From: Spirulina sp. | GTDB taxonomy: Bacteria > Cyanobacteriota > Cyanobacteriia > Phormidesmidales > Phormidesmidaceae | Direction of reading: 5' to 3' | Assembly: GCA_044070495.1 (NCBI GenBank) | Contig: JBIPSI010000015.1 | Location: 64,001 to 128,000 of the forward strand | Length of the DNA stretch: 64,000 bases | Part shown: positions 22,474 through 51,750 of the stretch, in pieces | How positions within the stretch are numbered: the stretch's first letter is position 1 | Layout: each line of letters starts with the position of its first letter | Notes under the pieces: generated by a model | What the model saw: only the letters and a program-made list of their open reading frames with translations | Databases searched by the model: none | Told to the model about the DNA's origin: nothing | Made by a program: the position numbers and the translations under genes

Positions 22474-24906
22474 CTAGGGTGGGCAGTGCCCACCCTGCGG
22501 GGTCTGGTGCTGATCTAGCCAGGTAGTGAGGGGAGGAATGACTGGACAGGGGCGGGCTGCTTGCAGGTTGTCGGGTTTGCTCCAGGTGAAGGGGGCTTGC
22601 TGGGCGGCGGAGAGCCACAGCAGCCGTTTGGCGCGGGTCATGGCGACGTAGAGGAGGCGGTATTCTTCGGCGGTTTTGAGGGCTTTGGCCTGATCCCAAG
22701 CGGCGAGGGTGTCGGGGATGGGGGCGTTGGTGTAGGTCGTAAGGCTGGGATCTGAGGGTGTTTGAGGGGTGCTGAATGGATTCGTGATTCCCTGATTCGT
22801 GTGGGTTTGATTTCCGTGGACAGGATCGATGTGGGATTGGTGGGCGTGGGCGCGGATTTGGGCGCGGGCCACTTCGGACAGTGAAAAGTCGCCCAGGAAC
22901 TTGGTTTGGGGCGGCACCCACAGTTCGCCGGGGATGGTTTTTTCGTGCAGAAAGGGCAGAAACACCACGTCCCAATCTAGCCCCTTGGCCTTGTGCATGG
23001 TGATGATCGTGACCTGGCCGGGGCGGGTGTAGATCGAGTCGGTGTCCTCGGTTTCCACCGCCGTGAAGCGCTCGGAGCCGACGATCTCTTGCAGGACTTC
23101 GATGGCGGCGGTGAGGGTATTGTTTTGGCTAATCTGCTGGCTGACGCGGGCCGCAAGCTTGTCGGCGGTGGCCAGTTCGCTTTGGTTGTAGCCCAGGGTT
23201 AGCCCCAAAAAGGGAAACAGGCTGTAGGGCGACAGTTCCAACCGGGCGCGGAGCAGGCCCGTACAGAAGCGGCGGGCGGTGCGGGCGGCGTCGGTATTGG
23301 GGGGCGTATCCAGGGGGCCGGGGTAGAGGAACTGCTCTGGGGCTTGGGCCAAGAGGTTGAGGTCTTGGGTGGGCACCCGCTGGCGATCCACCAGTACCCG
23401 CAGGGCTTCCTTGAGGGCATCGGGGGAATGGGGCCGATCAATAAACCGCATCAGGGCCAGCATGTCCTCCGGCACTTGGGTTTGCCGATCCTGGTCGCCC
23501 ACGTCGTAGATGGGCAATCCGAGGGCAGCCAAATCTACCCCTACCTCCTCCGCATCCCGCAACCGTTGGGCGACGTACTGCCCCTGGCGACCCTCCCGCA
23601 CCAAAATGGCAAAGCTGAGGTCAGGATTTTCGACAAATGCCTCCTGCACCCGCTGGGCAATCAGGCGCACGGAATCCTGGATGGTGGGCGGCGTGTGAAC
23701 TTCCAGGCCCGCACCGAGGGCTTCTGGGTTGGCGTTGGGTTGGGGGTCGTCTACGGGGACGGGGTGGATAGCCTGATCTCGAAAGGGCACGATATCACCT
23801 ATCACCTGGGTACGGTTGGCCCAATTCAGCAGACGGTTGGCGGCTTCCATAATCAGGGCGGTGCTGCGTCCCGCCTGATCCATGGTGACAAGGTGATCCT
23901 GGCGGCGGCAGATTTCACAAAACTGGTTAAAGAAAACCGGGTCGGCGGGGGTGAAGGTGGAGTTAATCGCCTGGTTGGGGTCGCCCACCCGCACTAGGTT
24001 CGGTTCGGCATCGGGATCGTCGGGGTTGCCCGCCAGCAGGGTCAGCAACCGAGTTTGCAGGGGCGAAGAATCCTGGGCCTCGTCCTCAAATACGGCAAAC
24101 ACGCGAGCCTGCCAAAAGCGCAGGGTAGTCGGATCCGCCAGGGTACGCAGGGCGGCGAGGATCATGTCGTCGTAGTCGATGAAGCTGCGCTCCTGCATCA
24201 GGGCTTGGTAGCGCTCGTAGAGTCCGGCGGCAATGGCAAGGATGTCGTAATCGACTTGGCCCTCGGTGTAACGATGGTCGAGGGATTGAGCCAATTCCAT
24301 CACCTGATCAGGCAGTAGGCCAGAACTCTTGGCCTCCCGAATCACCGTATCCGCCAAGCTGGGCAACACCTCCGTCCGCAACACCGACTGCCGCCGCAGA
24401 ATCTCGGTTTCCTCCCCATCCAACTGCGCCCCCTCCAGCAACCGTTGGTACAGGGCCGGATTCGCCCCAATCCACTGCTCCACGGCATGGCGAACCAGCC
24501 GATGATTTTGGGCCGGAGACACCAGGGTGAGGCTATCTAAACTGAGGTTAGATAGCTCTGGGTTGCGGGTAGCAATGGTGAGGGCCAGCCCGTGCAGAGT
24601 AGAGACCGTGAAACTGGTCTGGGGTAGCTTCAGGCGTTTCAAATGGCCGCGCACCTTGGCCTTGAGGTTCGCCGCTGCGGAACGGGTAAAGGTCACCAAC
24701 ACCAACTGGCGGTTCAAATGCAGTTGATAGCGGGCGATGGTCAACGCCGCCGCCGCCGCCATCCCCGTCGATTTGCCCGAACCGGGCACCGCCGACACCG
24801 CCAAACTGCCCCCCGCCCAGTCGGCCAGTTCCCGCTGCCCCTGGCGCAGGCTGGCGTAGATATCCTGGAGGATCGTCTCTCGGTCGGGGGCATCAGTACA
24901 CATCAT
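22474..24906 (-). CDS. UvrD/REP-family ATP-dependent helicase
   Basis: AVPGSGKS, VTFTRSAA, DEAQD, VGDPNQAI, TMHKAKGLDW, RLLYVAMTRAK; start uncertain and overlapping the upstream toxin stop. Confidence 0.92.
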   Translation of the reverse strand: MMCTDAPDRETILQDIYASLRQGQRELADWAGGSLAVSAVPGSGKSTGMAAAAALTIARYQLHLNRQLVLVTFTRSAAANLKAKVRGHLKRLKLPQTSFTVSTLHGLALTIATRNPELSNLSLDSLTLVSPAQNHRLVRHAVEQWIGANPALYQRLLEGAQLDGEETEILRRQSVLRTEVLPSLADTVIREAKSSGLLPDQVMELAQSLDHRYTEGQVDYDILAIAAGLYERYQALMQERSFIDYDDMILAALRTLADPTTLRFWQARVFAVFEDEAQDSSPLQTRLLTLLAGNPDDPDAEPNLVRVGDPNQAINSTFTPADPVFFNQFCEICRRQDHLVTMDQAGRSTALIMEAANRLLNWANRTQVIGDIVPFRDQAIHPVPVDDPQPNANPEALGAGLEVHTPPTIQDSVRLIAQRVQEAFVENPDLSFAILVREGRQGQYVAQRLRDAEEVGVDLAALGLPIYDVGDQDRQTQVPEDMLALMRFIDRPHSPDALKEALRVLVDRQRVPTQDLNLLAQAPEQFLYPGPLDTPPNTDAARTARRFCTGLLRARLELSPYSLFPFLGLTLGYNQSELATADKLAARVSQQISQNNTLTAAIEVLQEIVGSERFTAVETEDTDSIYTRPGQVTIITMHKAKGLDWDVVFLPFLHEKTIPGELWVPPQTKFLGDFSLSEVARAQIRAHAHQSHIDPVHGNQTHTNQGITNPFSTPQTPSDPSLTTYTNAPIPDTLAAWDQAKALKTAEEYRLLYVAMTRAKRLLWLSAAQQAPFTWSKPDNLQAARPCPVIPPLTTWLDQHQTPQGGHCPP

Positions 24907-25180
24907 CGTGGGAGCCAAGATTTAACAACAAAATTGATTGCCCTTGTGACTCTGCATCATCACCCACAAACTCAAACAAAATTCTCAGCTTGTAATCAAT
25001 TGAAGCTGACCAGATTCCAGCTAAATCTCCTGTTAATTTATGGGTCTGCAAACTAGGATGAAAAGGGTCTTCAGCGAGTTGATTTAGTGTTCTTTCAATC
25101 GCAGGACGCAAATCCGGGTTACGTTTGACTAACCGCTTCAAGGCTCTCAACGATTTGGGAGTCCAGCCAATTTGCCTCAT
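24893..25180 (-). CDS. RelE/YafQ-type mRNA interferase toxin
   Basis: HPSLQTHKLTG, RILF, C-terminal GSHDDVY. Confidence 0.85.
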   Translation of the reverse strand: MRQIGWTPKSLRALKRLVKRNPDLRPAIERTLNQLAEDPFHPSLQTHKLTGDLAGIWSASIDYKLRILFEFVGDDAESQGQSILLLNLGSHDDVY

Positions 25181-25395
25181 TTGTCTAACTCAGCCATGAA
25201 GTCAGCAACGGTGCCAAATGTTACTTGTCCCTGAGCATATTCCTGCCGAACTTCAGTAATCTCACTCATCAATACTTTTCGTCGTTGCTCGATGAGGCGC
25301 TTTTGAAGAAGTTCGAGTAGAGCTTCCTGATCATTCAATGACAAGGTTTCAATTGTTTCAATTGCCTTCTGAAAAGTAGAGGATTGTTCAGGCAT
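25177..25395 (-). CDS. Putative antitoxin
   Basis: 72 aa, acidic, 4-bp overlap with the toxin start. Confidence 0.75.
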   Translation of the reverse strand: MPEQSSTFQKAIETIETLSLNDQEALLELLQKRLIEQRRKVLMSEITEVRQEYAQGQVTFGTVADFMAELDK

Positions 25396-25524
25396 AGTAG
25401 TACTCCAAAATGCGTTAAGTTAATTGCACTGTTCTTGATTGACAGCAGCTAGGGTTTTGACCCGAAGTTGGGCATCATTAAGGGTAGGAGCAAAATCTGT
25501 CATGGGGTTTCTCTCTGCATAGAA

Positions 25525-25770
25525 TCAACCAACCTCATCTAGCTCAGGAATATATTCAGCTTCGTAATTTTCAATTAAGACACCAATCACATCCATCATT
25601 GAAGCAAGGGGATGGGTCTCATCTTCACCGACCTGATCAATTAAACCATCTAGCAATTCAACTAACTGCTCATATTGTTGCTCGGTGTGCGGAACAAAAA
25701 CAGTCCTGGCAATTGAATTCCAGGCTCTAATTGTGTTGTCCAGATCGAGACTTAGCATAATTTCTTCCAC
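25525..25770 (-). CDS. HigA-like antitoxin (N-terminal domain only, no HTH)
   Basis: LLDGLIDQVGEDETHPLASMMDVIGVLIENYE; immediately downstream of HigB. Confidence 0.7.
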   Translation of the reverse strand: MEEIMLSLDLDNTIRAWNSIARTVFVPHTEQQYEQLVELLDGLIDQVGEDETHPLASMMDVIGVLIENYEAEYIPELDEVG

Positions 25771-26045
25771 CTCTTTTCGTCATATTCTGCATGAGTCAAC
25801 ACAGCCCGAATGTAAACCTTTCTTCGATTGTAGTGAATTGCTGCAATGAGCCTAACCTGATTGCCTCCAATATTGAAAACTGTCAACTTTCCAACCTGAT
25901 CAGCCGATGGAAATAATTCACGTAACTCAACAAATGACGAAAACTTGTTCTGCTTAATAAGTCTGTACCATTGAGCTAGAGCGTTCTTGACCTCTGGATG
26001 AAGTTTGGCAAATTCGTTAAGCCGCCTACGAGTAATCACATGCAT
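25752..26045 (-). CDS. higB: HigB-family toxin
   Basis: MHVIT, FPSADQVG..VFNIGGN..RLI, THAEYD. Confidence 0.9.
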   Translation of the reverse strand: MHVITRRRLNEFAKLHPEVKNALAQWYRLIKQNKFSSFVELRELFPSADQVGKLTVFNIGGNQVRLIAAIHYNRRKVYIRAVLTHAEYDEKRWKKLC

Positions 26046-41300: not shown

Positions 41301-41669
41301 CTAGTCAACTCCAGAGTTCAGCAATCTGAAGCGATGGCCATCTTTGGTCACAACCACAAAGGCCTTCTGCAACGCTTCCATCGAGTATTGGGTGATGACT
41401 CGGCTCAACTCCCGGTGTACGGCATCCATTGTGGATGGCACCATCCGTAGGTAAATAACTCCTGTGCCCTGGGATCGCACAAAAACCAAAGTGCCATAGT
41501 CTCGATCCCGAGTGATCAAGATTCGCCCTTGGGCTTGAGCTAAACTGAGGATGGTTTCATCTGTGGCTCGTGCCATTCCCAGGGATGAAACACGAACTAG
41601 GTCGTAGCCCTTGTCTTGCAAAAATCGTTCTGTCTTGGCATAGACATCTTGATCCAATAAAAACCTCAT
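41301..41669 (-). CDS. DUF5615 (Mut7-C/PIN-like) toxin
   Basis: MRFLLDQDV, ATDETIL, LITRDRDYG. Confidence 0.85.
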   Translation of the reverse strand: MRFLLDQDVYAKTERFLQDKGYDLVRVSSLGMARATDETILSLAQAQGRILITRDRDYGTLVFVRSQGTGVIYLRMVPSTMDAVHRELSRVITQYSMEALQKAFVVVTKDGHRFRLLNSGVD

Positions 41670-41896
41670 ACCGCAGACGGAACAAGATTGATGTCCTCAG
41701 CCGCAATTAAAGCAATGGCATAACGTAGACAAGCTTGGATATCTTCAACGGATAAGTCTGGATAGTAGTCGGTGGTAATTTCCCCAAAGGAAAGCCCTTC
41801 AGTCAACAGTTCCAGCACGTTTTGTACCGTAATGCGCGTCCCTGCCACACAGGGTTTTCCAAAGTGAATCTGGGAATCAACTGAGATTCTATTCAT
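41666..41896 (-). CDS. DUF433 antitoxin
   Basis: GKPCVAGTRITV, YPDLSVEDIQACLRYA; overlaps the toxin start. Confidence 0.9.
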   Translation of the reverse strand: MNRISVDSQIHFGKPCVAGTRITVQNVLELLTEGLSFGEITTDYYPDLSVEDIQACLRYAIALIAAEDINLVPSAV

Positions 41897-42169
41897 ATCA
41901 GTACCCAATCCTATTGAAAGAAACGTCTTCAAGCCGTTGGATTTAATCAAAAAAACTGAATACTGAAACCGTGGGTTTTAGGAAAGGAGAATGCTCCATT
42001 GGTCACTATCCAGCGGGTTTGCGATGCATGTAGTTTAGCGTAGGGTACAGGGCTTAAACTACAGATGCGATTCAAGGTCTTGCAGAAGACTCTGAGTGCG
42101 GCTTTCCTCGTCGTGAAACCTCGGTTCTGCTGATGGTGGGCAGTGCCCACCCTACAGGAACTCGGTGAT

Positions 42170-44778: not shown

Positions 44779-45264
44779 CTAGGGCTGGGATGGCAAAGGT
44801 AGCTCAATTCCTAACTTGCCGCTCAGAACAACCACGTTATCCACAAAGTCGTTGGTGGCCGCTACCCCGCCTGCCACCCCACCTAACGCGAGGGTAGCCG
44901 CTGTGGCCAAAGCCGTCAGACGCTTTTTAAGTTTGGGCAAACTGCGCTGATCTTCGGGCTTCTGGATTTCAGCTTCCACATCGTCAATGTCGATGATGAG
45001 ATCCTCTTGCACCGCTGGGGGAAACTGGGTGGCCATTTGACGCAAGCTAGCGATGATGGTCAACAATTCTGCGGTAGAAACGCCACTGCTTTGGTTCACC
45101 CCTGCCGCCACCACCTGGGCCTGATCCTTGGCCTCGTTGACCACGTTGGCGATGTTACCCCCGTTAATCTGCGTGCCGATTTTATGGCCCGCTACCTTGT
45201 CGCCCATCACCTTGTCTCCAGCAATATTGTCGCCGCTGCCGTGTTGATAAATTGTGTTGGCCAT
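44779..45264 (-). CDS. Small protein with N-terminal GD-repeat motif and C-terminal helical/hydrophobic domain
   Basis: ATG at 45264 preceded by GAGGAGG; MANTIYQHGSGDNIAGDKVMGDK..., C-terminal LTALATAATLALGGVAGGVAA. Confidence 0.75.
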   Translation of the reverse strand: MANTIYQHGSGDNIAGDKVMGDKVAGHKIGTQINGGNIANVVNEAKDQAQVVAAGVNQSSGVSTAELLTIIASLRQMATQFPPAVQEDLIIDIDDVEAEIQKPEDQRSLPKLKKRLTALATAATLALGGVAGGVAATNDFVDNVVVLSGKLGIELPLPSQP

Positions 45265-45316
45265 GGTTAAGTCCTCCTCAGAAATCGTATGGCTAGGACA
45301 AGGTTGTGTTAAAGGA

Positions 45317-45583
45317 CTACGGAAAATAACGATAAAATTCGCGACGGTGCATAACACGCACAAAAAACACGATATCTTCTTCTAAAAACAATCCAATTCG
45401 ATAGTCGCCTACCCGGATACGAAAGTAATTATCACCACCTTTTAGCTTCTTGAGGTTAGAGATCTCATCTAGACGCTCTGTCCGCTCTACAGACTCAATG
45501 ACTTCTTTGATCTTTCTGAACAAGATCTTGTCGCTAGCCTTTCTCAGATCTTTCTCAAAGGTCTTGCGAAATTCAACCTTCAC
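45317..45583 (-). CDS. RelE/ParE-family toxin
   Basis: KKLKG..YFRIRVGDYRIG, HRREFY. Confidence 0.9.
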   Translation of the reverse strand: MKVEFRKTFEKDLRKASDKILFRKIKEVIESVERTERLDEISNLKKLKGGDNYFRIRVGDYRIGLFLEEDIVFFVRVMHRREFYRYFP

Positions 45584-45789
45584 TCGTCAGACTCCAGGAT
45601 GCTAAAAATAGCTTCCCGACTAACCGCATCAGAGTCTTTACCCTCATCAATGGCTTTAACCAAGGCCAAATCTTCCAGAGCTTCGGCCACCAGATCTTGA
45701 AATAAGTCGCGACGCTCCTGAAAAATCTCAAGAATTGCAGATTTAATCAACTCCTTGATTTGAGTTTCACTAAGGCTTGACTCCAGCAT
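45580..45789 (-). CDS. Putative antitoxin
   Basis: Acidic 69 aa, EALEDLALVKAIDEG, overlaps the toxin start. Confidence 0.75.
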   Translation of the reverse strand: MLESSLSETQIKELIKSAILEIFQERRDLFQDLVAEALEDLALVKAIDEGKDSDAVSREAIFSILESDE

Positions 45790-45832: not shown

Positions 45833-48505
45833 CTAGGGTGGGCCGTGCTTATCACCCTGTACCAGGTCGCCAGCTACATTATCGCCCTTACCATGCTGGT
45901 GGGTGTTGTCTTGCTTGATGTTGACGTGGATTCCCCCATAGCGTTCTTCAATGTCAATGCCGCGTTCTTTCATGTCGCGTTGGCGGCGGGCTTCCACAGA
46001 TTCGTAGCCATCGAGGAGTTGGCGCAGATTTACCTTAATCCGCAGTTTGCCGATGGGGTAATCGACAATGCCCATGCCCTCTAATCCCAAAAGCTCTTGG
46101 TAATCCAGGGGCGGATGGTCGGGATGGTTGGGGACGGGTACCCATTCGGTGACTTCTAAATCGGCGAAGCTCTTGTGGATGCGGGTGAAGGTGTCGCGGA
46201 TGAGGGAGAGGAAGACGCGGCGGGTGGTGTCTCGTCCGGCGATGGCGATGAAGATTTTTTTGTCTTCGGGGTCGGCTTTGATGCGGGCCATGTTGTAGAC
46301 CTCGTCGCCCTCGCGGTAGGCCAGCATGACACCGCTGCGCCAGTGGATGTGGTTGTGGATTTTGTCGTGGCTGAGGACGATGAACCGCGACAGCACGCTC
46401 TCCGGCAGGATGCGGTAGTGGTACTGAAATTCTAGGGTGTCGCCCTCTAGGCGGATGTCTTCCGGTTCTTCCTTGGGCAGCAGACCGGGGATGAGGAAGC
46501 GAGGGCAGGGGCAATCGGGCAGCGCAAAGCAGAGCTGAAATTCCTGCATCAGTTCGGTGAGGTAGCGGTGGCGTTCGGGGGGGTAGCGCTCTGGAGGCAG
46601 TACGCGGCTGAGGTCATCGTAATCGAGGAGGCCTTTGCCCTGGGTTTTGAGGGTGTCGTCGCTGAGTAGGGCGTAGATGCCCGTGGTCACCCAGTCGGGG
46701 TTGAGGACGTTGGTGTTTTGCAAAAAGGAATGGTTGCGAAAATTGAGCACCAGGCCCAAATTGTGCAGCAGGTCGATCAGTTGGGTTTGGTTCTGTTCTT
46801 CGGGAATTTGGTTTTGGTAGCAGATGCCGATGTATTCGCCGTAGCTAATAAAGTCTTTATCCAGGGCTTCAAGCTGTTCTTTGACCTGGAACCAGGAGAG
46901 GGGCAGCAGGTTATAGACTTCTCGCAGTTTGCCGACTTCTGCGGTAATGGTGGCCCGCAGTTCTTCAATGCCTTGGCCACTCTGGCAGGAGGTTTCTAGG
47001 ATGGCGCAAATGTTGGGATATTTTTGCCGCAGGGCTTTGCGGTTGATGTCTAGGGGTTGTTCGTCGCTTTTGTTGCCGACGATGATGACGGGCGATTCGC
47101 CGCCAAAGCTTTGGATGAGTTTGAGCCAATATTCAATGCGGTTTTCTTCTTCGCTGGTGCGGCAGTTGCAGACGAGAATGTAGAGGCTGCGTTTGGTGAG
47201 AAAAAACTGGTGGGTGGCGTGGTAAATTTCTTGGCCGCCAAAGTCCCACACGTTGAGGCGCACGTCTTTGCTGTTGACATGAACGCCCCACTCTCGAACA
47301 GCAAGCCCATCGGTTTGAGATTCGTTGGGATTAAAGGCTCCCTCCATAAGTTGTTTGATTAGAGAAGTTTTGCCCACACTGCCTTGACCAACCAGCAGCA
47401 TTTTAGCTTCGTTAAGAGGCTTAACTTCACCACTGCGGAGCTGGCGCAGATAGCCAAAGATGTCCTCCACAGAGCCGGGATCTTCATGCAGTTTCGACGA
47501 TCCTAAAATTTCTGGGGAAATAGGCAGCGGATTTCGCCTTACATCTAAAGTTTTGAGCTTAGGTAGAGTTTCAAGCCATTCAGGACACTCAGAGATGTGG
47601 TTGATTTTTAAGTCGAGATTCTCCAGCCTAGAAAGTTGTCTAAGGCAGTCCGGAATTGTCGTTATTTGATTACCATAAAGTCGAAGACCAGTCAGATTAG
47701 AGAGAGATGTGATGCAATTTGGAATGGCCGTAATTTGATTATTTTCAAGCCAAAGTTCAGTCAGATAGTTGAGTTCGCCTATACAATTTGGAATTATCTT
47801 GATTTGATTGCCACCGAGCCAAAGCATCTTCAGACTTTTGAGTTCACCTATAAAATTCGGAATCATTTCAATTTGATTACCATATAGCCAAAGTGTCGTC
47901 AGACTTTTGAGTTCACTAATACAATCTGGAATTGTCTTGATTGGATTACCACTCAGCCAAAGTGTCATCAGGCTTTTGAGTTCACTAATGCAATTCGGAG
48001 TTGTCGTGATTTGATTGCCACTCAGCCCAAGCATCGTCAGACTTGTGAGTTCACCAATACAATTCGGAATCGTCGTGATTTGGTTAAGATCAAGTCTGAG
48101 CGCTGTCAGATTTGTGAGATCACTAATGCAATTCGGAATCATCTTGATTTGATTGCCATGGAGCAAAAGTGTCGTCAGACTTGTGAGTTCACCAATGCAA
48201 TTCGGAATCGTCGTGATTTGGTTAAGATCAAGTCTGAGTACTGTCAGATTTGTGAGTTTACTGATGCAATCTGGAATTATTGCTATTTGATTTCTCTCGA
48301 GCCTGAGTAACATCAGTTTTTTTAGTTCGCTAATGCCATCCGGAATTGTCGCGATTTGATTGCTACTGAGGTTGAGCTTTTGGAGATGAGTAAGTTTGCC
48401 AATTTCGGGGGGCAGTTCCGTCAACCCTTGGCCAGAAAGGTCTAGCTCTGTCCAGCCCTCGGCGGCGGCTTGGTCAATCAGTTGCAGCAGCTCATCTTGG
48501 GTCAT
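45833..48505 (-). CDS. LRR-Roc-COR (Roco) protein
   Basis: 13 LRRs of 23 aa; Roc GTPase GQGSVGKTS, WDFGGQE, NKSD; COR (W..VK..L, LHNLG, LNPDWVT); start MTQDELL at 48505 or ATG at 48514. Confidence 0.95.
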   Translation of the reverse strand: MTQDELLQLIDQAAAEGWTELDLSGQGLTELPPEIGKLTHLQKLNLSSNQIATIPDGISELKKLMLLRLERNQIAIIPDCISKLTNLTVLRLDLNQITTIPNCIGELTSLTTLLLHGNQIKMIPNCISDLTNLTALRLDLNQITTIPNCIGELTSLTMLGLSGNQITTTPNCISELKSLMTLWLSGNPIKTIPDCISELKSLTTLWLYGNQIEMIPNFIGELKSLKMLWLGGNQIKIIPNCIGELNYLTELWLENNQITAIPNCITSLSNLTGLRLYGNQITTIPDCLRQLSRLENLDLKINHISECPEWLETLPKLKTLDVRRNPLPISPEILGSSKLHEDPGSVEDIFGYLRQLRSGEVKPLNEAKMLLVGQGSVGKTSLIKQLMEGAFNPNESQTDGLAVREWGVHVNSKDVRLNVWDFGGQEIYHATHQFFLTKRSLYILVCNCRTSEEENRIEYWLKLIQSFGGESPVIIVGNKSDEQPLDINRKALRQKYPNICAILETSCQSGQGIEELRATITAEVGKLREVYNLLPLSWFQVKEQLEALDKDFISYGEYIGICYQNQIPEEQNQTQLIDLLHNLGLVLNFRNHSFLQNTNVLNPDWVTTGIYALLSDDTLKTQGKGLLDYDDLSRVLPPERYPPERHRYLTELMQEFQLCFALPDCPCPRFLIPGLLPKEEPEDIRLEGDTLEFQYHYRILPESVLSRFIVLSHDKIHNHIHWRSGVMLAYREGDEVYNMARIKADPEDKKIFIAIAGRDTTRRVFLSLIRDTFTRIHKSFADLEVTEWVPVPNHPDHPPLDYQELLGLEGMGIVDYPIGKLRIKVNLRQLLDGYESVEARRQRDMKERGIDIEERYGGIHVNIKQDNTHQHGKGDNVAGDLVQGDKHGPP
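47525..48421 (-). repeat. 69-bp tandem LRR-coding repeats
   Basis: 13 units; 48034..48118 and 48172..48256 match at 82/85. Confidence 0.9.
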
Positions 48506-48517
48506 GGGTGGCATCTC

Positions 48518-48946
48518 TTAGACAATCAGATGAATCCAGGCGTAGGCATTACCCACAGAATTAACAAGGCGACGATCTGCCGTCCATAACTCAGCAGTTA
48601 ATGTTTCAGCCAAGGCCAAATAGTGAGCGTCATAGGTCGCTGGCAGTGAGAATTGGTTTGCGATTTACCAAGCTCGCTTGTGTAAACTGGCATCACCATA
48701 AAGCTCAATATTTAAGCCAAGAGCAATCTCTAAGAACCCATGGGCAATCTCTAGAGAAAACTGCCCTGCTTTTGCCAGTCTATACAGGGCATTTGTAACT
48801 TTATAGAGAATAAGACTAGGCGCTGAAATGCTTGTTCCAGCTTCTATCCAGCCATTCCAAAGAACATGATAGGGAGATTCTTCTGGATCTGAAATCAACA
48901 GCCGTACCACAAAGCTGGCATCCACACACACGTTATCTAGGCTCAT
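48518..48946 (-). pseudogene. VapC/PIN toxin with an in-frame nonsense codon
   Basis: VCVDAS...HKRAW* (TAA at 48665-48667) continues in the same frame as IANQFSLPATYDAHYLALAETLTAELWTADRRL...WIHLIV*. Confidence 0.85.
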
Positions 48947-49206
48947 AGGATTGGAGGGTTCGACAAGATGCCGCTGAGAACAGTTTTATCGCGCTGCTCC
49001 CGTTCTTGGTGAATCAACTCTGCGACGGGTAGGTCAGCCATGTCGGCTTCGTTAGATTGGCGCAGGCGTCGATGGAGGCTGCGTAGACGCTTTTGGCTGA
49101 CTTTCCAGGCGGCTTTGCGATCCAGCTTGGTATACAGCAAGCTCCGTTCCGCCTCAGAAAGGGACTCGATGACCTGAAGAAGGGAGTCTACTAACTTTGT
49201 GTTCAT
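48943..49206 (-). CDS. Putative antitoxin
   Basis: MNTKLVDSLLQVIESLS; overlaps the PIN gene start. Confidence 0.7.
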   Translation of the reverse strand: MNTKLVDSLLQVIESLSEAERSLLYTKLDRKAAWKVSQKRLRSLHRRLRQSNEADMADLPVAELIHQEREQRDKTVLSGILSNPPIL

Positions 49207-49254
49207 GGCCAAAGGTGCAGTGACTAAACCTATTGTAAGCTCCCTAGATAGTTA

Positions 49255-49395
49255 AGCTCCGTCCAGCCCTCGGCGGCGGCTTGGTCAATCAGTTGCAGCA
49301 GCTCGTCTTGGGTCATGGGCGTGGGGGTGGCGGGTGTTTTTCCATTTATAGCGGCGTTTAGGGGCTGTTGGCGAGGTCAGAAACCCGGTTTCTTG
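49255..49395 (-). repeat. Copy 2 of the LRR-Roc-COR 5' end plus upstream segment
   Basis: Encodes MTQDELLQLIDQAAAEGWTEL, then NYLGSLQ* (49316..49230). Confidence 0.92.
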
Positions 49396-49409
49396 AGCAG
49401 GTGCACTAC

Positions 49410-49802
49410 CTACCAGAGAACCTTGATGATTTCCGCGTCTCGCAGCATGGTGTCGCGGCTAATCAGGGTTGCTTCATAGAGTTTTGCGGTGGCCGCAATG
49501 ATGCGGTCATGGATATCCCAGTGGCTAGGTAGCTCCAAAAGGCGTTGAAACGTGGGCAAATCGAATGGCACAATCGCGAAACCGTCGCCAGCTTCCAGAC
49601 GAGCCATGACCTCTTCTATGCCAACCGGGACTCTCTGTCGCTGGGCAATGTATGTCAGTTCAGCCAGAACTAGCGTGGATACCAACACCTGAGCATCCCC
49701 TACCTCCGCAGCACTCAGTACCTCGTGGGCCAAAGGTGAAAGCCGTGAGTCTTCAGCAATGAACCACGCTAGCGCATGGGTATCTGCAACAAAGGTATCC
49801 AT
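49410..49802 (-). CDS. VapC/PIN toxin
   Basis: VADTHALAW, LAE, DIHDRIIAATA, LISRD. Confidence 0.88.
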   Translation of the reverse strand: MDTFVADTHALAWFIAEDSRLSPLAHEVLSAAEVGDAQVLVSTLVLAELTYIAQRQRVPVGIEEVMARLEAGDGFAIVPFDLPTFQRLLELPSHWDIHDRIIAATAKLYEATLISRDTMLRDAEIIKVLW

Positions 49803-49813
49803 GGACAAATGGG

Positions 49814-50008
49814 CTATTCCTCGTAGGCATGGCTAAAAACGGCTCGCTGTGCCGCTGCAAAGTCATCCTCTGAAAAATCCACCCCTCGCCACAGCCCTTG
49901 AAGCTGAGTGGAGCGCGGCCCCACCTGGGTTTGCTGGAGAACCGTCTGCCGTAGATGTTCCAACTCTTGCTGCAAAGCCTCGATGCGGATAAGGAGGTAA
50001 TGACTCAT
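49814..50008 (-). CDS. Putative antitoxin
   Basis: 64 aa with LQGLWRG motif, directly upstream of the PIN gene. Confidence 0.7.
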   Translation of the reverse strand: MSHYLLIRIEALQQELEHLRQTVLQQTQVGPRSTQLQGLWRGVDFSEDDFAAAQRAVFSHAYEE

Positions 50009-50072
50009 ATCACGTCTGGCCCACGAATATTCTGAAAAAGCTGGCTCTATTGTAAGCGCCCTAGACCGCTTT

Positions 50073-50231
50073 GCCGGAAAGGTCTAGCTCTGTCCAGCCC
50101 TCGGCGGCGGCTTGGTCAATTAGTTGCAGCAGATCAGCTCATCTTGGGGCATGGGCGTGGGGGTGGCGGGTGTTTTCCCAGTTATAGTGGCGTTTAGGGG
50201 CTGTTGGCGAGGCCAGAAACGGGGCTTCTTG
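50073..50231 (-). repeat. Copy 3 of the LRR-Roc-COR 5' end plus upstream segment
   Basis: Near-identical to 48431..48510 except a 5-bp insertion (~50131-50135); upstream part matches 49320-49395. Confidence 0.92.
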
Positions 50232-50237
50232 GTAAAG

Positions 50238-50492
50238 CTAGGCTGTTTGGGCAATGGGTTGACCGAGATCATACAGAAACTCTGGTGCAAAGTCTGCCCC
50301 GTTGGGCCATTCAATAGTGCTGGTCTCAGGATTTAGAAAGACCTGCTTAAAGTATTCGACATCCTTCAGGGGTGCAAAAATTTCGCCGTACAGTTCTTGG
50401 GCTAGATCAACATCCACGATGGCCTGGTTGTTAAACGTTAGTCTAAGTTTGTAGTTATCTAAATACTCAACCGTCTCAACATGAAGAAACAT
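50238..50492 (-). CDS. DUF2442 antitoxin-like protein
   Basis: YKLRLTF, GEIFAPLKD, TIEWPNGADFAPEFLY. Confidence 0.88.
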   Translation of the reverse strand: MFLHVETVEYLDNYKLRLTFNNQAIVDVDLAQELYGEIFAPLKDVEYFKQVFLNPETSTIEWPNGADFAPEFLYDLGQPIAQTA

Positions 50493-50504
50493 CGTTAACC
50501 TCAT

Positions 50505-50762
50505 TTACTGCAAAGGCTCTACTTCATTCAGTGCTTTTCTCTGCCGTGCCAGTTCCCAATTTGCTAGAAGTTCTGTCTGGTGTAAGTCTAGCCATTCCAA
50601 CACCATCCGCAAAGCCCGCTTAGACATTCTGCCTTCAACCACCCCAGTTTCTATTTCCACAATAATTTCCTGTTCCTGATAACGAGCATGAAAATGAGGT
50701 GGTTGATGATCGTTATAGTTCATAAAAATAACGATGCCGTAGAATCGGCTAATGGTCGGCAT
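50505..50762 (-). CDS. DUF4160 toxin-like protein
   Basis: MPTISRFYGIVIFM..DHQPPHFHARY, ELLANW. Confidence 0.9.
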   Translation of the reverse strand: MPTISRFYGIVIFMNYNDHQPPHFHARYQEQEIIVEIETGVVEGRMSKRALRMVLEWLDLHQTELLANWELARQRKALNEVEPLQ

Positions 50763-50812
50763 AGCTAATGCCTCAAATGACTAAGTCCATTGTAGGCTCT
50801 CTAGATAGTCCT

Positions 50813-50896
50813 GCCAGAAAGGTCTAGCTCTGTCCAGCCCTCGGCGGCGGCTTGGTCAATTAGTTGCAGCAGCTCATCTTGGGTCATGGGTGTGGG
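50813..50896 (-). repeat. Copy 4 of the LRR-Roc-COR 5' end
   Basis: 50813..50892 matches 48431..48510 at 79/80; reads MTQDELLQLIDQAAAEGWTELDLSG, then RTI*. Confidence 0.95.
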
Positions 50897-50923: not shown

Positions 50924-51361
50924 CTAAGACAAATTTTCAAGATCTGCTAAGTCTTGAAGTCGGCCTGAGGCACGCTTATTAAGCTTGAGATTTTCTAGGT
51001 CGATAAAGTTAACCACAATGCCATCCATCTCCACCGTCAAACGATTGGTATAGCAGGTGGCAAAGTCAACACCATCTGGCGTTGTAATAAGATCAATAAG
51101 ACTCGGAGGATAACCTAATTGAATCACCTGATCTGGAGTCAAAAAGTCCTCTGCTTGAAGGTTCAGTGATGCGAATCCAAACTGCTTTAGAGCTTTTAGC
51201 ATATTGGCAGCATTCTCAGGCGTCATCTCAACCCAAATATCAATATCTTTGGTGTAGCGAGGATAGCCATGCAAAGCCACAGCATAACCGCCGATTACCA
51301 AGTAATTAACCTGATTATCGTTTAGTGACTGTATAAACTCTTTGAAATCTTGGTTCAGCAC
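50924..51361 (-). CDS. Nucleotidyltransferase-fold protein
   Basis: IGGYAV..HG.PRYTKDIDI, K.ASGR.QDLAD. Confidence 0.85.
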   Translation of the reverse strand: MLNQDFKEFIQSLNDNQVNYLVIGGYAVALHGYPRYTKDIDIWVEMTPENAANMLKALKQFGFASLNLQAEDFLTPDQVIQLGYPPSLIDLITTPDGVDFATCYTNRLTVEMDGIVVNFIDLENLKLNKRASGRLQDLADLENLS

Positions 51362-51524
51362 CGTATTTCCAGCAATGATACTGTTGGCGAAGATTTTCTA
51401 GCGCCCCAATTCTATCGATATAGGGCTGTGTTCGCCAGTAAGTGGCCTCTTGCTTAGGCGCATGAAGGCTAGCCTTAGTTACGACGGCTTGTATAGTACG
51501 CCGTTCGGATTCTGTCACGGTCAA
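51315..51524 (-). CDS. Small partner of the nucleotidyltransferase
   Basis: YWRTQP..DRIGALE.LR, RFQRV; overlaps the NTase start; GGAGG upstream. Confidence 0.65.
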   Translation of the reverse strand: MTVTESERRTIQAVVTKASLHAPKQEATYWRTQPYIDRIGALENLRQQYHCWKYGAEPRFQRVYTVTKR

Positions 51525-51555
51525 TCCTCCATACAGTACCTAAGACCTATCTTAA

Positions 51556-51689
51556 TCCACCGCCTCGGCGGCGGCTTGGTCAATCAGTTTCAGCGGCTCA
51601 TCTTGGGTCATGGGCGTGGGGTGGCGGATGTTTTCCCAGTTATGGCGGTATTTAGAGGCTGTTGGCGAGGTCAGAAGCCCGGTTCCTTG
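51556..51689 (-). repeat. Copy 5 (most diverged) of the LRR-Roc-COR 5' end plus upstream segment
   Basis: Reads MTQDEPLKLIDQAAAEAVD*; upstream part matches 49320-49395 and 50155-50231. Confidence 0.9.
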
Positions 51690-51700
51690 GGTAAGCGGGT

Positions 51701-51750
51701 CTACCAGAGAACCTTGATGATTTCCGAGTCTCGCAGCATGGTGTCGCGGC
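51701..51750 (-). pseudogene. Orphan 3' end of the PIN gene at 49410
   Basis: Matches 49410..49459 at 49/50 (RDTMLRDSEIIKVLW*). Confidence 0.9.

Follow-up and report, generated by a model that had tools for sequence, protein, structure and literature searches.

Why should unrelated toxin-antitoxin (TA) cassettes begin with the same leader? The question is raised by a 64,000-nucleotide (nt) stretch of Spirulina sp. DNA (contig JBIPSI010000015.1, positions 64,001 to 128,000; the window), in which a gene of the LRR-Roc-COR (Roco) type is preceded by four small cassettes, c1 to c4, each of which itself follows a stranded copy of the Roco gene start. A first-pass annotation of the window noticed a conserved leader at the points where Roco homology ends and cassettes begin and took it for a cassette-borne promoter, for a recombination site that would act as the cis element of the array, or for both. 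Our analysis indicates that the motif is most likely a sigma-70-type -10 box of the cassette operons; as far as sequence comparison can tell, it is an ordinary promoter box, not a new cis element, and should not be treated as one. We think it reasonably probable that repeated insertion with long target duplication built the array and that the box was passed on by descent inside it.

A shared leader at the cassette junctions

The motif, with consensus TCTAGRGNGCYTACAATRG, occurs in three copies on the minus strand (49230-49248, 50047-50065, and 50787-50805), the strand on which all of the cassettes and the Roco gene are encoded. Copy 1 is part of the c1 leader (49221..49252), with TACAAT at 49237..49232, 25 nt ahead of the ATG, and a predicted transcription start near A49225/G49224. 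Copy 3 belongs to a c1-type leader that precedes c3 (50778..50809), with TACAAT at 50794..50789, 26 nt ahead of the ATG, and these two 32-mers agree at 27 of 32 positions, exactly as quoted in the annotation. Copy 2 (50047..50065) has only the 19-nt core, and its TACAAT (50054..50049) lies 40 nt ahead of the c2 ATG. Each copy follows the end of the alignment with the Roco start, and the genes behind the copies are not homologous, being an unnamed antitoxin-like open reading frame (ORF) plus a PIN gene in c1 and c2 versus DUF4160/DUF2442 in c3; the annotation had described this layout correctly. It had also assigned the weak variant TACTGT to the nucleotidyltransferase (NTase) cassette, c4, for which we found a better counterpart: TAAGATAGGTCTTAG at 51554..51540 (minus strand; TAAGAT followed by AGGTCTTAG, with TAAGAT at 51554..51549), which lies 24 nt before the c4 TTG and aligns with TAAAAT/TACAAT plus AGG(G/T)TT in c4 orthologues.

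The similarity of the leaders is unusual within the genome. When each 32-mer was searched against all 5,313,730 bases with up to 8 mismatches allowed, its sole match was the other 32-mer. The consensus TCTAGRGNGCYTACAATRG at up to 3 mismatches has three matches in the window, all without a mismatch, compared with a mean of 0.17 in shuffled sequence and with none of 100 shuffles reaching three, a test that is partly circular since the pattern was built from the copies themselves. Genome-wide, the same pattern has 3 matches at 0 to 1 mismatch, 4 at up to 2, and 26 at up to 3, the other 23 all lying outside the array.

Conservation of the box in orthologous cassettes

Orthologues of the cassette genes give an indication of what the motif does. 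Among 173 genomes of the order, 8 (one of them G000) have orthologues of the first gene of c1, as do metagenome contigs L085 and L086, and while their leaders have diverged, the core C[CT]TA[CA]AAT[AG]G is invariant in G012, G018, L085/L086, G025, and G067, lying 24 to 26 nt before the ATG where this was counted (window, G012, G018, L085, and G025). TA.AAT is the invariant core of the eight aligned c1 leader sequences, and the orthologues that keep TAnAAT span 44 to 100% amino acid (aa) identity, with TAAAAT in G067 and TAGAAT in the relatives with 44 to 48% aa identity in G034 and G025 (contig C358). Among these orthologues only position 3 of the hexamer changes, as expected for a -10 box. 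At the c1 locus on contig C576 of G025, no Roco start can be recognized and the leader comes immediately after the stop codon of an unrelated gene, so that the box is part of c1 rather than of the Roco stub; on the strength of the same leader, we rejected a derivation of the motif from decayed Roco coding sequence (the EIGKLT region).

The other cassettes provide similar evidence. Orthologues of the c2 antitoxin were identified in 6 of the 173 genomes, and the three that lie outside Roco arrays (G020, G068, and G017; 59 to 69% aa identity) have CTACAATTG 31 to 32 nt before their ATG. Orthologues of c4 carry TACAAT, TAAAAT, or TAAGAT plus AGG.TT at one aligned position, where TAAAATAGGTTTTAG (L102), TACAATAGGGCTT (L088), and TACAATAGGTTTAG (G023) line up with the box of the window's c4; the G023 gene is a solitary c4-like small gene between unrelated genes, in a non-Roco context, and the box is nonetheless present. 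The near-constant distance to the first gene in c1, c2, and c4 orthologues agrees with the annotation's reading of TACAAT as a -10 hexamer, here as part of a predicted promoter with a start expected about 7 nt after the box. The wider proposal that the promoter is cassette-borne would therefore apply to c1, c4, and probably c2, in whose orthologues TAnAAT is kept, but not to c3, whose relatives elsewhere (G031 and G003) have no c1-type leader or motif.

Cyanobacterial promoters often have the form TAnnnT, with a -35 element that is weak or absent. Like the sigma-70-type -10 elements of type II TA operons, the boxes described here place TAnAAT 24 to 40 nt before the first gene where counted, are kept in orthologues, and vary only at hexamer position 3 (and at position 4 in the window's c4); they differ in that no -35 element is evident and that an additional RGG-YTTAG is conserved across unrelated cassettes. 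Several observations weigh against the interpretation as a plain promoter box. The box of the window's c2 lies 40 nt from the ATG compared with 31 to 32 nt in the orthologues, which makes homology between it and the native c2 box tentative. A two-hexamer scan flagged copy 3 alone (CTGGCA-17-TACAAT, 9 of 12 positions) and returned 3 sites in 3.6 kb versus 3.8 in shuffles, and consequently we see no convincing -35 element. An identical 14-mer, TACAATAGGTTTAG, is common to a c1 leader (L105, G012) and the c4-like gene (L012, G023, 1400-1460), two different genomes in which the first genes behind it are unrelated (c1 antitoxin-like versus a c4-like small ORF). Finally, the combination TAnAAT plus RGG plus YTTAG is confined to this array within its own genome, which is more than a generic -10 box predicts.

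Distribution of the motif beyond the array

The annotation had suggested that the motif might be enriched upstream of TA pairs in the genome and its relatives, but our scans recovered no dispersed or TA-linked element. A 17-mer version with one mismatch allowed gave 32 matches in 53 genomes of the genus versus 24 for the reversed control, and of 30 loci read, two of which were the window's own, the match precedes a cassette gene in 4: at those two copies and, in G012 and G025, before c1 orthologues. The shorter GCYTACAATRG has 16 matches in the window's own genome versus 8 for the reversed control, some of them before DUF29- and Uma2-like genes (families judged by eye from the N termini). An extended c1/c2 promoter pattern matched 21 times in the 173 genomes versus 7 for the reversed control; five of these matches precede TA genes, all of them c1 or c2 orthologues. 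With only 5 of 21 matches before TA genes, we discarded the extended pattern as a general TA signal of the order, and the genome and genus searches likewise speak against a dispersed repeat.

Probable shared descent of the junctions

If the box is native to c1, c4, and probably c2, the question remains why it also precedes c3 and why the window copies are so similar. The contig L096 (same sequence as G068:C11) has c3 genes after the 3' part of a c1 vapB, in a Roco upstream context, and the resemblance between its c3 and that of the window reaches no more than about 20 nt ahead of the ATG. Further upstream, the window's c3 has the c1-type leader TACAATGGACTTAGTCAT, which is closest to the c1 leader of L085, TACAATGGGCTTAGTCAT. 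Because c3 relatives have no such leader while the c3 of the window lies behind one, the c3 unit would have been built inside a c1 unit, from which the 27-of-32 match would be inherited. The c2 unit is homologous to the c1/c3 junction from the Roco stub through TACAATAG, where the homology ends; the native c1 and c2 promoters of other genomes are alike over about 20 nt, and c2 may for this reason have been joined through the short homology that the box offered. The window copies (TCTAGRG.GCYTACAAT) are also more similar to each other than to the c1 leaders of other species (TTTGGGTAGCTCCTACAAT), which suggests copying or conversion within the array.

Taken together, these comparisons are consistent with the following order of events. 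A c1 VapBC-like cassette with its own leader would have inserted about 87 nt into Roco, duplicating the Roco start, and later units would have been built on copies of this c1 junction. In the c3 unit, DUF4160/DUF2442 would have been placed behind a c1-type leader, and in the c2 unit the junction homology stops at TACAATAG, a box that c2 relatives also carry natively. The c1 insertion is old, given that the arrangement of stranded Roco start, c1, and a second Roco start continuing into Roco is found in G012, G018, and L085/L086 at about 78% identity to the window. The Roco gene is probably read from the c1 promoter, by predicted read-through, since no upstream copy lies before it and the c1 vapC stop is only about 6 nt ahead of the Roco ATG, a spacing that leaves no native Roco upstream region at this ATG.

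Repeats at the Roco start and variation among alleles

The repeats that separate the cassettes are copies of the Roco start (RS) of 52 to 87 nt, beginning just before the ATG, three of which are joined to a copy of about 90 nt of upstream sequence (U); identity among the RS and U copies ranges from 73 to 99%, and we found no other occurrence of them in the 5.3-Mb genome. The duplicated source is the first ~85 nt of Roco itself (RS0, 48431-48514, minus strand, as for all copies). RS1 with its U copy spans 49255..49409 (RS1 49255-49319; U 49320-49409, containing GCTATAAAT), and RS2 with U spans 50069..50237 (RS2 50069-50155, in which a 5-nt insertion shifts the frame). RS3 (50813..50892), which has no U copy and is directly preceded by the end of the NTase gene, is 98.75% identical to RS0 over 80 nt. 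RS4 with U (51563..51750; RS4 51563-51614) lies together with a 50-nt remnant of the 3' end of a c2-type PIN gene (51701-51750), 98% identical to 49410-49459. The extent of the duplication varies from unit to unit, from about -9 to +87 (c1) and -15 to +50 (c4) to the whole of U (c2 and c3). U resembles the native Roco upstream region of the single-copy alleles in G024 and G027. A clear hairpin lies at the U position in G024/L096; in the window, the U copies have no fold above shuffles and a terminator scan returned 0 sites, and on the former ground we dropped the idea that U is a terminator-promoter module in this genome.

Relatives including G007, G024, and G027 have a single Roco start with native upstream sequence, and we refer to these alleles as empty on the basis of Roco's own upstream region, as synteny further upstream is not conserved. 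The arrays of G012 and G018 hold c1 only. L102 has U-RS, then c4 alone at 99% identity to the window's c4, then RS-Roco, and in G005 a block composed of a DUF2442 end, U, RS, motif, and c2 is present twice with the same c2 junction both times. In G030 an RS fragment is followed, 41 nt on, by GAGCTTACAAT and by another antitoxin-like pair.

A pattern scan for Roco starts in metagenomes gave 21 loci, 7 of which were dropped as unrelated proteins that merely contain DQAAAEGW. We also compared DNA contigs of four metagenome runs at 90% likeness and found joints at which c2 is skipped (49328->50137, X1 and X2, whose figures are identical throughout and which may be one data set) or c4 is skipped (50901->51577, X3), together with reordered units (50893->50161 in X3 and 51694->50238 in X9). 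The ends of these joints fall within RS/U repeats, a weak sign only, as the letters between the two sides are not known, depth is low, and some joints imply partial overlaps of repeats. In the comparisons made, it is through these RS/U repeats of 50 to 200 nt that units are gained, lost, and duplicated. The array variants of relatives and metagenome contigs differ by whole units bounded by RS/U and not by the motif, and the annotation's view of the motif as a recombination site and cis element of the array thus found no support.

Loci in two relatives contain further peculiarities. In G005 (L013, G005:C179), one copy of the c2 antitoxin gene is split by an AT-rich foreign block (15217-13988, minus strand) with a 409-aa ORF that falls into none of the families tested. 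On the same contig (13018-12683, minus strand), a 12-codon Roco stub is fused in frame to an MNT-type nucleotidyltransferase of 111 aa (NTP_transf_2, 6.8e-12 in Pfam), a fusion that would use the Roco promoter and start codon. In G064 (L112, G064:C65, 3453-6284), an RS stub with the native upstream region is followed by GTACAAT and an ORF of about 880 to 940 aa that replaces Roco. By eye this ORF looks like a NACHT/STAND NTPase. The Roco locus seems to swap whole conflict-system genes as well.

Alternative explanations for the motif

Other explanations of the shared motif would assign it a role in joining or regulating the cassettes. It might be a passive joint, in which the shared -10 region served as short homology for fusing new pairs to an array unit by short-homology or illegitimate recombination, so that the motif marks a breakpoint without being a recognized site; this idea is compatible with the promoter interpretation. 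The homology of c2 to the c1/c3 junction that ends right after TACAATAG, the ~20 nt over which native c1 and c2 promoters agree (GTTTGGGTAGCTCCTACAAT versus GTTTGGGCGGCTCTACAAT), and the fact that the five extended-pattern matches before TA genes involve these same two antitoxin families (5 of 21 matches, with 7 in the reversed control) are what one would expect from such a joint. However, c2 is the one informative case, c3 was joined about 14 nt further downstream and not at the box, and the c4 and G005 MNT junctions have other breakpoints, all of which makes this account unlikely as an explanation for the motif. We consider it quite unlikely that the motif is a regulatory site beyond the -10 box, such as an operator or 5'-leader element (RGG-YTTAG) to which a shared factor would bind, or else the c1 antitoxin, in trans, at those units that have inherited its leader. 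The 14-mer that is identical in c1 and c4-like promoters of different genomes, the restriction of the extended motif to the array in its own genome, and CCTAnAATAGG, which in several c1 orthologues forms a 4+4 palindrome over the box, would fit such a site, but this palindrome, itself short, is disrupted in the copies of the window, no fold rises above shuffles, and the first genes of c1, c2, c3, and c4 encode products that have no relation to one another.

Less probable again is a dedicated recombination site (attC- or att-like) at which a recombinase encoded elsewhere captures cassettes. The motif does lie at the left edge of three cassettes, and in five junctions, which carry four cassette types between them, the Roco start is interrupted at one and the same position, following GGCCA(A)GGG. 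Even so, the Roco breakpoint and the box are separated by a variable distance of about 10 to 50 nt, the copies have no shared inverted repeat and no structure (fold z-scores of 0.06 and -0.37), and the spacing between box and start codon is fixed in orthologues outside arrays. Homology between units or alleles does not end at the motif, the gain and loss of units mapping instead to the RS/U repeats, and two further arrays of the same genome (C9 and C51, described below) have the same architecture but no motif. No integrase, recombinase, or transposase family was identified among the 47 ORFs scanned with Pfam between 20,989 and 63,949 (13 in or adjacent to the array and 34 others), the rest of the genome not having been searched. 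Chance resemblance of unrelated AT-rich leaders is hardly credible; TACAAT alone is common, and even GCYTACAATRG is found at twice its control count, but the uniqueness of the 27-of-32 match in 5.3 Mb and the absence of three matches in any of the 100 shuffles refute it for the 32-mer pair. The origin that we favor, a promoter box inherited within an array of target-duplicating insertions, leads to the comparison with known systems.

Relation to known insertion systems

A self-comparison of the genome revealed two more arrays of the same architecture. In C9:8635-10251, two TA-like two-gene pairs alternate with three copies (73 to 92 nt, 95 to 98% identical) of a 3' gene end, that of a TPR-type gene at C9:10144-11574 (minus strand), the array thus lying at the 3' end of this gene. 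Judged by eye, one of these pairs is RelE/ParE-like plus an antitoxin and the second is similar to the window's DUF5615/DUF433 pair (41304-41950). In C51:2079-5931, a gene end of 57 to 70 nt is present three times, its copies flanking a VapBC-like pair and a 3-kb block that has a C5 DNA-methyltransferase-like ORF, both identified by eye.

Nobusato and coworkers are said to have reported insertion with long target duplication in 2000. Restriction-modification genes are the cargo for which the process has been described; one cyanobacterial case, from Microcystis, is listed, and the mechanism is given as unknown (Furuta, Abe & Kobayashi 2010; PMC2853133). The present array resembles it in consisting of small addiction-type units without mobility genes, in having direct repeats longer than 30 bp (RS of 52 to 87 nt plus up to ~90 nt upstream) that are single at the corresponding site of other genomes (G007, G024, G027, and others), and in an insert shorter than 20 kb with no other mobile element. 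It differs in that the cargo is not restriction and modification genes but TA-like pairs (PIN/antitoxin, DUF4160/DUF2442, and an NTase pair), in that the insertion has been iterated four times at one gene start to give an array, and in that the duplicated target carries the promoter and first codons of a gene. What we claim, by analogy, is a likeness of mechanism and not membership of the restriction-modification set. A full-text search of one paper library for "insertion with long target duplication" turned up no report with TA cargo.

Other repeat-based systems show partial parallels. In the promoter-early stem-loop (PeSL) cassettes of T4-type phages, recombination between modules adds, removes, and shuffles genes, and circles arising by exchange between neighboring modules have been proposed as vectors (Arbiol et al. 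2010; PMC2839356). Both systems have short repeated regulatory modules between small nonessential genes, but the repeats here are host gene start and upstream copies in a bacterial chromosome and not phage promoter/terminator units, and the window's U copy has no hairpin above shuffles. In the lpl tandem paralogue cluster of Staphylococcus aureus, a conserved block in or at the edge of the ORF is a site of homologous recombination, so that the evolving unit spans a gene end, the spacer, and the next gene start (Tsuru & Kobayashi 2008; PMC2568036). The same span evolves as a unit here, whereas the lpl genes are paralogues and our cassettes are unrelated and separated by stubs of one gene. Integron arrays (attI/attC) likewise hold small, mostly two-gene cassettes, TA pairs included, in one direction beside a fixed point, but the present array has no integrase nearby and no attC-like imperfect inverted repeats, and its boundaries are host gene start copies of varying extent.

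The array adds an example to a kind of insertion that is known but unexplained. Little is understood of how chromosomal TA pairs move when neither a transposase nor an integrase is involved, and here, as at two further loci of the genome, TA pairs are flanked by long duplications of the end of the target gene, a signature so far described for restriction-modification genes. Relatives offer single-cassette and single-copy states of the site and hence a system in which circles, dependence on RecA or transformation, and promoter takeover of a GTPase gene could be tested. As a broader and decidedly tentative idea, the promoter-led addiction cassettes of this lineage (TA and restriction-modification) might be spread by one insertion process that duplicates 50 to 110 nt of a gene end, builds arrays at 5' and 3' ends, and releases and reinserts units through the stubs; at Roco, the cassette promoter would have replaced the native one, so that a TA autoregulatory circuit would set the expression of a conflict-system GTPase.

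Gene content of the locus

The Roco gene (45833..48514, minus strand) is intact and encodes 893 aa with matches to the Pfam families LRR_8 (2e-46), Roc (6e-32), COR-A (9e-40), and COR-B (2e-32). The cassettes upstream of it, in the same orientation, are 0.55 to 0.7 kb in size and comprise two VapBC-like pairs (c1 and c2), DUF4160/DUF2442 (c3), and a small ORF with a DUF6036 NTase (c4); Pfam gives only TA-type families for them. Cassette c1 (48520-49212, minus strand, as for the genes that follow) has an antitoxin-like ORF of 87 to 89 aa (48943..49212) without a Pfam family and a PIN-type vapC (48520..48946) that is interrupted by an in-frame TAA at 48665-48667, where its ORF ends in HKRAW while the frame continues beyond. 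The TAA is placed ahead of the YDAHY segment. The G012 orthologue has Q at this codon and is intact at 142 aa (PIN, 1.2e-5 in Pfam), and a blastn alignment of the two genes covers positions 1 to 427 at 78% identity. The c1 toxin is thus probably dead, as judged from its reading frame, while its promoter and antitoxin-like gene are still present.

Cassette c2 (49410..50008) consists of a 64-aa antitoxin-like ORF (49814-50008) and a PIN toxin (49410-49808; Pfam PIN, 9.9e-16), and c3 (50238..50762) of DUF4160 (50505-50762; 1e-22) and DUF2442 (50238-50504; 1.8e-13). Cassette c4 (50924..51524) has a small ORF (51315-51524) and the DUF6036 nucleotidyltransferase (50924-51361; Pfam). NCBIfam returned no family for the seven proteins tried, six from the cassettes and one encoded by a 194-aa ORF downstream of Roco.

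This 194-aa ORF (44779-45363, minus strand), which also lacks a Pfam family, shares a GDN/GDK repeat with Roco: the repeat is found at the C terminus of the Roco protein (HGKGDNVAGDLVQGDKHGPP, 45833-45900, minus strand) and at the N terminus of the ORF's product (GSGDNIAGDKVMGDKVAGHKIG), a pattern reminiscent of the paired adaptor domains of NTPase conflict systems. A RelB-like/ParE pair identified with Pfam lies directly downstream of Roco (45317-45789, minus strand), such that TA pairs are present on both sides of the gene. Further TA-type pairs (ParE/YafQ-like, HigB, and DUF5615/DUF433) are scattered among housekeeping genes of the window at 24896-26045 and 41304-41950.

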